From positions 2,173,320 through 2,237,319 of the forward strand of contig ML992501.1 of NCBI GenBank assembly GCA_010093995.1: 64,000 bases of DNA. Direction: 5' to 3'. Made by a program: the position numbers and the translations under genes. This DNA is from Elsinoe ampelina. Lineage: Eukaryota. Under the pieces are notes generated by a model. That model did no database searches, was not told where the DNA came from, and saw nothing but the letters and a program-made list of their open reading frames with translations. Of the stretch, positions 61,396 to 64,000 are shown piece after piece. How positions within the stretch are numbered: the first letter of the stretch is position 1; each line of letters begins with the position of its first letter.

Positions 61396-62736
61396 CTAGA
61401 CTCTATCGAAACGACGCTGGCTACTCCATTCACCATTGTCGAAGTTTCCGCTCCAGTTGTTACCTTGAAATACCTGGCCAATGTTGGACTGCGAGCCGAT
61501 CATGAAATTCGATGCCGGTTCAAACCCACCGCGCATGGATTTGTTGCCGCCGCTACCAAGGGATTCTGCCTCGCGCGTCTGCGCAGCCTGAGCAACTAGG
61601 CGCGGGCCTAGATCGCGACACCATCTCCTCAGCTCGCCACGGATGAACTTGTACCCAGGATCTCTTTCGTCCCTGAACTTTGCGACGCCAGAGTGGTCTG
61701 CTTGCATGGCCACCGAGGTGTATGCATTCAGGGTCGCGGAATTCTTGGGCACGACCTGAGCAAGTCAGTTTAGATCCTGTACACAGCACAAGCGCGTGAT
61801 GACGAACCAGACTCCCAATAGCACTAGTGTTGAGGTCCTCAAAGAAGCAAGTGATTTGCCACTTTGGGAGACCTGCTGCATCTCGGTCACGGATCATGGT
61901 ATGGAATTCCTTCTGTATACGTGCCAGGACTTCCGACTGAGGCTCCAAGACGCTGACGATGGCATCGTTGGCTCGTATCAGGACCATGACCGATTTCCCG
62001 ATCTTAGCCCAATCCGCCAATTGAGACCCGCAATGCGGAGTGGCCATGAAAATTATGCCCCTTGTCGCCTCAACGATGCTTTTGAGATGCGGCTCGGCGC
62101 TGTTCTTCGAGTACAGAAGCATCTGGATGACATGTCAGCTGGAGATCGGTGAATCATAGTTGCATGGCATACGTCCTCTACTACCAGTCCACCAAGACTA
62201 TGAGCAATGAAGAACAAAGGTCGATCGGCCTGTGTTTTGTTGTAAGTATCGGACGATTCTTGTGCGACTTCAGAGTCGCCTCACCTCGCCTTCCGAGTCT
62301 CGCTCATGAGCAAGGCTCGTAAGGAACGTTTGTGCATGGTCGCCTATCCTGCTTTGCGACACTGTGGACCACATGTGGCCAACGTCTGCATCGTAGCCGT
62401 AAGTGAAAATGCGGGCATTTGGAAAATCACGTGGCAGCAGTTGCTCCGGCCAGAAACAAGATGTTGACCGATGAGTCCAAGTCGTCTCGCGATCACCGGT
62501 GAGCCCATGGACCAACACTATGCTGATCTTGTCAATCATCGGAATATATCACATATCGACTCTGGAATGTCTTACTCTACTGCTCGGTTCTTGTTCGCTG
62601 GCTCGCTGCACTGGAACATACCAAGCTCACCTCGCGGTCTGGCGGGAAGCTCCACTTCAGAACCACTTCCATCTTTCTCCGCATTTCGGCTCAGCTTCTT
62701 CGGCTTGTCTTTCTTTTTGTCGTCTTTGAACGGCAT
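61396..62736 (-). CDS. SesB-like (SERAC1/DUF676-type) alpha/beta hydrolase with a C-terminal putative amyloid signalling motif
   Basis: Five exons (introns 62523-62575, 62230-62284, 62123-62172, 61756-61807). Motifs DIVLVHGLTG, FWPEQLLP.DFPNARIFTYGYDA, nucleophile elbow FIAHSLGGL, GIIFMATPHCGS and ADHSGVAKF. Tail NFMIGSQSNIGQVFQGNNWSGNF. Confidence 0.9.
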
Positions 62737-63533
62737 CTTGACGTGCAGTGCGGGGTCACCTCCAACCGACTGTTAACAGTGTAAGAGGAAGATATATTCG
62801 AGCTTGCGAGTTGACCGACTGAGCCCGTGTCTGCAATTTGAAACTGATGTAGAGGGCGCAGGGATAGTGCGTATCTATTCTGAGCACCTAGGGATACTCG
62901 AGTGACCTTTTCAACAAGGATAGCAGGCTATGCAGACTACTGCAAGACCCATACAGACGGCCACATGCAGGCGTGTTTGCTCCCACGCAGCTCGCATTTC
63001 TTCCGCGGACCCCCAGCTTCTCATTGGGCAGTAGAACTTTGCCTTCTTTTCGGACGACATCAGCTGTGCTGAACTATTGAAGCCACATCGGTTGATGCGG
63101 CAGCCTCACTTTCAACAGCGGCTTGTCGCGAGCTGCGCTCGATAGTGCACACCATCTTCTGGGTAGTGCCGTTTCATGCCTGCAGGGAAGACTTTGGCTG
63201 GGACCTCAGCCCAAGCGCGCGGACCAGGTTACAGCGATTTGAAATGACGCTCGGCGAGGTTACCTGGATTCAGCCAATGATTGCGAGACCGACAATGCAC
63301 GAAGTTATGGCTGCAGGATTCACAGGTCTTCAGCCCATAAGCAGACCTCAGCCGGGGTCATGGAAAGGCACAGTCGTACGTTGCGCTGAAGGTCCATGGT
63401 GAGAAGGACCGACGCCAATATGTCTTAAAAGTGTCCTTGCATGTCCCGCCCAGGAGGAAGCGAATCAGTCATTCATGAAGCTCGCTGAAAGGATACCGGA
63501 CGATAACACAGACATACAAATGCTGGCCCAGTA

Positions 63534-64000
63534 ATGGAGAATCTCCGGGACAAGAAGAACTTCATTGTCGGCGGCCTCAGCAATGTAGGTCAGGCCTTCC
63601 AGGGGAACAGCATTGGCGTATTCCAGCAAACCGGTCAGTCTTTCGACTCGCTGTTGGCTTCCTCATCACTGACCATATTCAAGTCACTGCTGATCATGTT
63701 AATGAGAAGTTAGAGCAGTGCGTCGCTGCTCTATTCTCCACCGATCCCAGAAACACACGCAACACTCTGATAAGATCACATTATCAGTTCACCCACGAGA
63801 CCTGCCAGTGGATACTGCACAATGATGTCTTTCAGCGATGGTTCCAGGGCGAGCCACAGGAATCGCCACTCATTTGGATTTGTGACAAGCCAGGGCAGGG
63901 GAAGACAGCAATGGCGATTTACATTAGCAAACACCTCGAAGAAGTCTACAACGGCGATGACAACACCTGGGTTCTCTACTACTTCTGCGACGCGAATGAC
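63534..64000 (+). CDS. NACHT-domain NLR-like protein (5' part; runs off the window) with N-terminal putative amyloid motif
   Basis: Not in the ORF track. Exon 1 (63534-63633) is MENLRDKKNFIVGGLSNVGQAFQGNSIGVFQQT; intron 63634-63683. Exon 2 is ...CVAALFSTDPR...ETCQWILHNDVFQRW...LIWICDKPGQGKTAMA...VLYYFCD, typical of the pre-NACHT and Walker A region of fungal NLRs. Confidence 0.88.

Follow-up and report, generated by a model that had tools for sequence, protein, structure and literature searches.

A 64,000-nucleotide stretch of Elsinoe ampelina DNA (contig ML992501.1, positions 2,173,320 to 2,237,319; hereafter the window) ends in two head-to-head genes. This locus is probably a two-gene receptor–effector module of the fungal NOD-like receptor (NLR) amyloid-signalling type, with a PP-like motif of no established class. 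The receptor would be a NACHT-ankyrin NLR in which one copy of a motif of ~22 residues replaces the effector domain. The effector would be a SesB-like hydrolase that carries the matching motif on a disordered C-terminal tail. The observed basis of this reading consists of the anatomy of the locus, the splicing of the receptor, the hydrolase fold, the conserved pairing of the two genes and the conservation of the motif on both partners. We infer from it amyloid folding, templating, activation of the hydrolase and a cell-death or other biological outcome. Coordinates are collected in Table 1, and P numbers are our handles for proteins.

In the proposed mechanism, binding of a ligand to the ankyrin repeats would cause the NLR to oligomerise. 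Oligomerisation would gather the N-terminal motifs, which could then take up a cross-beta (beta-arch) fold. This fold would template the matching tail of the hydrolase, and hydrolase molecules would thereby be recruited and concentrated or activated. The hydrolase would probably act as a lipase in a cell-death or defence response. The proposal follows the established model for such systems: as the NLR oligomerises, its N-terminal motifs fold into a cross-beta template, and this converts the same motif on an adjacent effector (PMC5485727, PMC3321046). A match between an NLR N-terminus and the C-terminus of the adjacent effector is accepted in the field as an amyloid signalling motif, GDQN being a recent example (PMC12261475).

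A preliminary description of this locus had reported that the two genes share an 18-residue peptide, and retranslation of the DNA agreed with it. The hydrolase-side 18-mer, NFMIGSQSNIGQVFQGNN, is encoded by 61456-61509 on the minus strand, and the receptor-side 18-mer, NFIVGGLSNVGQAFQGNS, by 63558-63611 on the plus strand. Aligned without gaps, they are identical at 11 of 18 residues and have a BLOSUM62 sum of 68. The same codon is used at four of the 11 identical residues and a different one at seven; therefore, the likeness is maintained at the protein level. Identity between the two coding stretches is 34 of 54 nucleotides.

Both regions are rich in G, N, Q and S, which inflates chance likeness. 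One explanation is thus that the similarity is meaningless, being either an accident of low complexity or left over from a recent local event of DNA duplication or gene conversion. Composition-preserving shuffles were run on the C-terminal 80 residues of the hydrolase against the N-terminal 60 of the receptor, and none of 20,000 reached a score of 68 (maximum 46). The same was true when only the biased, G/N/Q-rich cores were shuffled (0 of 20,000; maximum 50). The similarity is far beyond chance. In addition, both motifs are kept across species of two orders while the flanking linkers vary. Given the shuffles, the codon differences and this conservation, an origin by chance or duplication was rejected, and its probability is close to negligible.

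Comparison with relatives extends the conserved unit beyond the 18-mer to G-x-[FYI], for a total of ~22-23 residues. Its consensus is N-[FY]-x-x-G-x-x-x-N-[IV]-G-Q-[VA]-F-Q-G-[NS]-x-x-G-x-[FYI]. N, Q or G make up 12 of 23 residues in the hydrolase motif and 10 of 22 in the receptor motif, interleaved with hydrophobic residues. The receptor 18-mer covers residues 9-26 within exon 1, and the extended motif runs to residue 30. The hydrolase 18-mer had been placed at the C-terminus; it lies near the end of the 376-residue protein but is followed by 19 more residues (WSGNFDNGEWSSQRRFDRV) before the stop. G344, F353, Q354 and G355 are invariant in all six motif-bearing hydrolases, and the preceding linker is unconserved. 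G13, L15, N17, Q23, G24 and G28 are invariant among four aligned receptor N-termini. A motif profile gave 40-44 bits for the two window copies and 34-50 bits for all members, versus at most 9.2 bits for everything else searched. No third copy was detected with it in the six-frame open reading frames (ORFs) of at least 20 residues in the 64-kb window (best other score, 9.2 bits).

The effector gene was modelled by hand with five exons, and the product is identical to the annotated protein P0001, named in its source as 'Alpha/Beta hydrolase protein [Elsinoe ampelina]'. The product is a SesB-like (DUF676) serine hydrolase by sequence family and predicted fold, and a putative lipase. The Pfam DUF676 match scores 31.5 bits against a gathering cut-off of 20.3. 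An AlphaFold2 model built with 79 homologues has a mean predicted local distance difference test (pLDDT) score of 82.8 and a confident alpha/beta-hydrolase core, and the tail from about residue 330 has a pLDDT of 41-51. The best Foldseek matches in the PDB are lipases, esterases, thioesterases, a phospholipase and PGAP1, with E about 1e-8 for the lipases and esterases. The earlier assignment as SesB-like is thus borne out by the DUF676 score, the modelled core and the Foldseek matches. The protein has the nucleophile motif AHSLGG (S144), of which the HSLGG part does not vary among the six closest relatives (6/6). S144, E247 and H278 are at least 90% conserved in the 79 homologues and stand in the canonical Ser-acid-His order.

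Evidence on splicing came from four sequencing runs, available as contigs and not on record as RNA, so that their RNA status is a guess. The contigs of two coded runs were taken as transcript-derived on account of 50-58-nucleotide joints with canonical splice ends. Contigs show hydrolase introns 2 and 3 (62230-62284 and 62123-62172) as CT..AC joints. Introns 1 and 4 (62523-62575 and 61756-61807) are placed by the annotation and orthologue alignment, and no joint for either occurs in any contig. One contig of run X1 (window 62467-62666) spans intron 1 unspliced; retention would close the frame after 54 residues. In the same run, a spliced antisense transcript overlies the 3' half of the hydrolase gene. 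Its joints run from 61763 to 61822 and from 61897 to 61949, and it covers the motif-coding part of the gene. The antisense contig reaches back to ~61279, toward a divergently oriented Ribosomal_L27A gene, and a bidirectional promoter is possible.

On the receptor side, the motif exon is spliced directly onto the exon that encodes the pre-NACHT region and the start of the NACHT domain. The preliminary description had staked its reading beforehand on this splice, which is seen in a 789-nucleotide contig of run X1 (167 nucleotides on the shorter side). The contig joins 63466-63632 to 63683-64000 and runs ~300 nucleotides past the window. Receptor exon 2 matches Pfam NPHP3_N (NACHT-type) at 3.4e-15 and is 51% identical to P0121, a NACHT-ANK protein of E. 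australis. The first 139 residues of the receptor lie in the window, and ankyrin repeats are seen in its orthologues P0121, P0271, P0133 and P0122. The orthologous receptors consist of NPHP3_N/NACHT, a winged-helix domain and ankyrin repeats. Pfam finds no N-terminal domain in P0121, P0271 or P0133, where the motif is the only element upstream of NACHT. Together with the splice, this agrees with the earlier statement that the NLR has no effector domain at its N-terminus. Two E. australis gene calls that ignore introns (P0272 and P0273, from Logan) start with 'MYDSALTFP' and continue with the post-motif sequence of P0121. These starts appear to be intron read-in, which suggests that E. australis and E. 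ampelina have the motif exon and the place of its intron in common. A short upstream ORF whose stop overlaps the receptor start codon (TAATG) lies within the contig that begins at 63466, and it may limit or regulate translation of the receptor.

The start codons of the two genes, 62736 on the minus strand and 63534 on the plus strand, are 798 bp apart, in line with the earlier figure of ~800 bp. The intergenic region between them is presumed to be a shared promoter region.

Conservation was examined from both sides of the pair. At E up to 0.001 the hydrolase has 215 homologues, including one source-named 'sesB-related', and the 120 best were inspected for the tail motif. It was found in six hydrolases among these: those of E. 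ampelina, E. australis, Vermiconidia calcicola, Elasticomyces elasticus, Saxophila tyrrhenica and, more weakly, Cladophialophora psammophila. None of 80 metagenome loci with relatives of the hydrolase contained the motif (614 kb; 80 kept of 469 confirmed; best score, 8.4 bits); therefore, the motif is rare. For the receptor, a HMMER scan of exon 2 against 1.84 billion representatives gave 1318 matches. Among the 150 best, whose N-termini were inspected, two bear the motif, P0121 and P0133.

Each of these receptors adjoins a motif-bearing hydrolase. P0121 (1344 residues) is E. australis B9Z65_5960 (PSK36145.1), paired with the hydrolase B9Z65_5959 (PSK36144.1). A second E. australis strain has the receptor TKX20439.1 and the hydrolase TKX20440.1. 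P0133 (1401 residues) is Elasticomyces elasticus LTR17_008050, adjoining the hydrolase LTR17_008049. In both E. australis strains and in Elasticomyces elasticus, the partners have consecutive locus tags or accessions and lie on contigs of equal reported size, and all of them bear the motif at the expected end. As judged from these sequences, the pair and both motifs are conserved in three species of two Dothideomycetes orders (Myriangiales and Mycosphaerellales). Conservation in orthologous pairs, which had been named as a check, was thus found together with signs of co-variation. The module reading also gains support because the same hydrolase family is found fused to a NACHT NLR: P0265, among the receptor matches, has it as its N-terminal domain (BLASTP against P0001, 5e-25).

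A nine-sequence alignment shows a one-residue insertion at a matching position in the two E. australis partners (NIGGNLFQG and NIAGSAFQG; the E. ampelina sequences are NIGQVFQG and NVGQAFQG). Of the six hydrolase motifs, the cognate one scores highest against the E. ampelina and E. australis receptors, with 13 of 23 positions each. For the Elasticomyces receptor, it ties with close relatives at 8 of 22 positions. Across the three pairs, co-variation of the motif between partners is suggestive only.

The motif was next set against the known amyloid motif families. PP, the nearest in style, follows the pattern FxGx(x)NxGLQLxGxNxGxL (PMC3321046) and has the core G-Φ-Q-Φ-G, centred on one Q (PMC7885112). 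A possible explanation that keeps the same mechanism is that the motif is merely a divergent PP member of the PNT1/HELLP/SBP type, with no family of its own. The common style is consistent with this: ~20 residues, an N/G/Q pseudo-palindrome, a hydrophobic centre, an F-x-G-type start and a G-x-hydrophobic end. PP is also among the motifs described on SesB-like lipases (PMC9815663, PMC5485727, PMC7885112). However, the PP core is absent. The motif centre, G-Q-[VA]-F-Q-G, is one residue longer, and the E. australis centres, G-G-N-L-F-Q-G and A-G-S-A-F-Q-G, are two residues longer.

Profile searches bear on the same point. Pfam PF17046 (Ses_B) actually models PP (PMC12261475). It gave no match at E up to 10 for the motif pieces, 0.1 for six full-length hydrolases or 0.01 for P0121 and P0133, though it matched the NLR N-terminus P0219, used as a control, at 3.1e-4. 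Its power is limited, as it missed the PP-like N-terminus P0165. In the other direction, our motif profile did not detect P0219 at E up to 100. The PP profiles of a 2022 survey also left the E. australis receptor PSK36145.1 unflagged in its supplementary table (PMC9815663). Taken together, we consider a divergent PP member rather unlikely.

The remaining families fit no better. Sigma spans ~40 residues with a three-fold repeat of GxGxQF and/or GGTQN (PMC3321046), whereas the E. ampelina motif has just one unit, of ~22 residues, and repeats neither sub-motif; Pfam PF17106 (NACHT_sigma), a model without a positive control here, gave no match. The HET-s unit (HRAM) has 21 residues, with N at 1 and 18, G at 10 and 17, a positive charge at 13 and hydrophobic residues at 3, 6, 14 and 16 (PMC3321046). 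By inspection of the alignment, our motif instead has G at 11 and 16, V or A at 13 and S or G at 6, and the Pfam HET-s models do not match the motif pieces. PUASM reads FxGxGxQxxGxGxF and is described only with PNP_UDP effectors (PMC9815663); that pattern is absent here and the effector is DUF676. GDQN, NxxxGxQYxxxGxGDQNxVSxxxxQxN, was described on a SesA protein (PMC12261475, section 3.3) and does not fit either. The preliminary description had likened the locus to the HRAM, PP and sigma systems: the gene layout matches, and the motif fits none of the three. The Pfam PP, sigma and HET-s models also matched none of 49 proteins with G/N/Q-rich termini chosen by eye (36 hydrolase homologues and 13 NLRs) at E up to 0.1; therefore, these models are insensitive and Pfam negativity is a weak test.

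The literature search found no description of the motif, and no paper with both 'amyloid signaling motif' and 'Dothideomycetes'; supplementary files 8, 9 and 10 and the S1 Text of PMC9815663, which may list effector-side motifs, lay outside it. By sequence, the motif would stand as an unclassified family that has the general grammar of known motifs in common and is nearest in style to PP, as an N/G/Q pseudo-palindrome without the PP core. It appears to be either an undescribed family or a strongly divergent relative of PP. The bolder proposal is a further undescribed amyloid-motif family in a few Dothideomycetes, possibly with a weaker relative in Chaetothyriales, in which a lipase-like enzyme would be the sole partner of the NACHT-ankyrin receptor and a pore-forming protein would be missing. 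We put this slightly short of an even chance.

Related proteins have other termini. Many other SesB-like hydrolases of further fungi (among P0005-P0119) end in different G/N/Q-rich tails, such as GNxITGxxNNxxGGKxxxGNxFQGxxxF and GGGPxFxGxxxAGRDxxxN. The curated models seem to capture only part of the terminal motifs found in the SesB-like hydrolase family. The related NACHT NLRs P0194, P0216, P0222, P0247 and P0258 have N-termini of the type FxGxGIQxxGxGxFNV, which fit the PUASM pattern.

Several findings weigh against the module reading. Amyloid formation is only putative, and all Pfam amyloid-motif models failed to match either motif piece at E up to 10. In the supplementary table of the 2022 survey, PSK36145.1 is entered as 'noasm', with an N-terminus marked 'unannotated' and 'not-clustered' (PMC9815663). 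Pairs come from three species only, and the motif-bearing proteins of Vermiconidia, Saxophila and Cladophialophora count as hydrolases only, not as pairs. The Elasticomyces receptor motif has diverged centrally (TTSI for GQVF), leaving the 8 of 22 positions in common with its partner. Even in E. ampelina, the extended pair needs a one-residue gap, since the hydrolase has an extra W358 after QGNN that is missing in the receptor. The receptor itself is seen only up to the end of the window. No annotated protein containing receptor exon 2 was found in a word-index search of longer proteins (seven candidates, none significant); the E. ampelina receptor may be unannotated or differently modelled, which is weak evidence either way. 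Sense expression of the last hydrolase exon is not shown by the contigs, where the antisense transcript overlies it. Finally, the covered side of the locus yielded no pore-forming partner, and CgSBP, the one such lipase to have been studied, is described as targeted to the membrane by HELLP (PMC7885112).

Another possible explanation is that the common peptide is a non-amyloid homotypic interaction or targeting tag: the two proteins could dock through it in soluble form, or it could direct the localisation or degradation of both. In its favour, the structure tools gave only low confidence for the tail. A complex prediction with two copies of each motif region (score 0.01, controls not run) counts neither for nor against it. 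A search of the ESM Atlas with the hydrolase tail gave no usable match by features and only template modelling (TM) scores below 0.4 by structure. However, the N/Q/G composition, the placement at the NLR N-terminus and at the effector C-terminus beyond a disordered linker, the shortness of the one unit and the pairing of NLR and effector genes match amyloid signalling motifs and are unlike known docking or sorting signals. A tag of this kind is therefore improbable, well behind a divergent PP member.

If the amyloid-signalling module is accepted, it is one more instance of an established principle of fungal signalling, templating from an NLR to an effector. About five motif families had been classified by 2025, with one more provisional, and others are still emerging. 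Since published profiles missed this motif, profile-based surveys would undercount such systems in Dothideomycetes, a class with many plant pathogens and fungi that live on rock. A lipase-only module, if real, would mean that amyloid templating alone can switch on an enzymatic effector. The matched insertion in E. australis would likewise show co-evolution of both sides to stay in register. Such a module would be a simple system for asking how conversion of a tail to amyloid activates an enzyme, a question open even for SBP and SesB. The yield is otherwise modest: one more family, a search profile and three natural pairs.

The surroundings of the pair were annotated on the hydrolase side, within ~17 kb of the hydrolase. 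The pair is surrounded there by ordinary housekeeping-type genes (Table 1), and four other large ORFs on that side are without a Pfam match. A HeLo-like third gene had been suggested as something to look for. No HeLo, HeLo-like or SesA-like third motif gene was found, either with the motif profile across the window or with Pfam in these ~17 kb.

Table 1. Positions of the receptor, the hydrolase, their motifs and neighbouring features in the window
Feature	Position	Strand	Remarks
Receptor (NLR) exon 1	63534..63633	+	33 codons + 1 base; little encoded besides the motif
GT..AG intron, motif exon to NACHT exon	63634..63683	+	50 nt; joint 63632/3 to 63683/4 in run X1 contig
Receptor exon 2	63684..64000	+	Pre-NACHT region and start of NACHT-type NTPase, P-loop GQGKT; ends at window edge
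Receptor-side motif	63558..63623	+	Receptor residues 9-30, NFIVGGLSNVGQAFQGNSIGVF
Upstream ORF	63475..63534	+	19 codons, MKLAERIPDDNTDIQMLAQ; TAA stop overlaps receptor ATG (TAATG); within contig starting 63466
Intergenic region between divergent genes	62737..63533	.	797 bp; from gene coordinates
SesB-like/DUF676 alpha/beta hydrolase gene	61396..62736	-	376 residues, five exons; manual model = annotated protein P0001
Hydrolase exons	62576-62736, 62285-62522, 62173-62229, 61808-62122, 61399-61755	-	Stop 61396-61398
Effector-side motif	61441..61509	-	Hydrolase residues 340-362, NFMIGSQSNIGQVFQGNNWSGNF; after variable linker; 14 residues, then stop
Spliced antisense transcript over hydrolase 3' half	61300..62201	+	Plus-strand introns 61764-61821 and ~61898-61948; GT..AG joints, run X1
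Ribosomal protein gene, L27A family	60427-61079	-	Pfam PF00828, 2.4e-13; directly downstream of hydrolase gene
DUF3824 protein ORF	56520-58943		Pfam; hydrolase side of locus
PPR protein ORF	52992-55364		Pfam; hydrolase side of locus
Copper amine oxidase ORF	48440-50059		Pfam; hydrolase side of locus
MFS transporter ORF	43460-44443		Pfam; hydrolase side of locus

Among known systems, PNT1/HELLP/SBP of Chaetomium globosum is close in that an NLR with an N-terminal motif stands beside SBP, a putative lipase of SesB-like type whose C-terminus bears that motif (PMC5485727, PMC7885112). The PP motif of that system is likewise an N/G/Q pseudo-palindrome of ~20 residues (PMC5485727, PMC7885112). In contrast, the E. 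ampelina motif is without G-Φ-Q-Φ-G and without a Pfam PP match, and the locus has no HeLo-like third gene on the covered side, within ~17 kb of the hydrolase. The receptors differ as well, since PNT1 is NB-ARC/TPR in Podospora and the E. ampelina receptor family is NACHT-ANK.

The het-eN/sesA/sesB cluster of Nectria haematococca also resembles the E. ampelina locus. A NACHT-ankyrin NLR stands beside the alpha/beta-hydrolase SesB with a common G/N/Q/aromatic-rich extension, and the NLR-side motif is similarly hidden in a short 5' exon before an intron (PMC3321046). The sigma motif there is a three-fold repeat of ~40 residues, unlike the single unit of ~22 residues in E. ampelina, and no sesA-like partner is seen on the covered side of the E. 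ampelina locus. NWD2/HET-S of Podospora anserina consists of divergent neighbours, with an NLR that has no effector domain and one N-terminal copy of the motif, and it is the source of the templating model borrowed here (PMC3321046, PMC5485727). Its effector, however, is a pore-forming HeLo protein with two motif repeats.

More recent families show the same match of an NLR N-terminus to the C-terminus of an adjacent enzyme or effector, as in the PUASM pairs and the GDQN pair of Fusarium oxysporum (PMC9815663, PMC12261475). Neither pattern fits the E. ampelina motif, and the effectors there are PNP_UDP and SesA. Finally, the 'all-in-one' alternative described by Daskalov et al. 2012 (PMC3321046) is seen in NLRs that carry the same hydrolase family as their N-terminal effector domain, such as P0265 and the proteins in many 'SESB-LIKE NACHT' rows of the survey. 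In E. ampelina, by contrast, hydrolase and receptor are two distinct proteins, and the common motif is the sole link between them.

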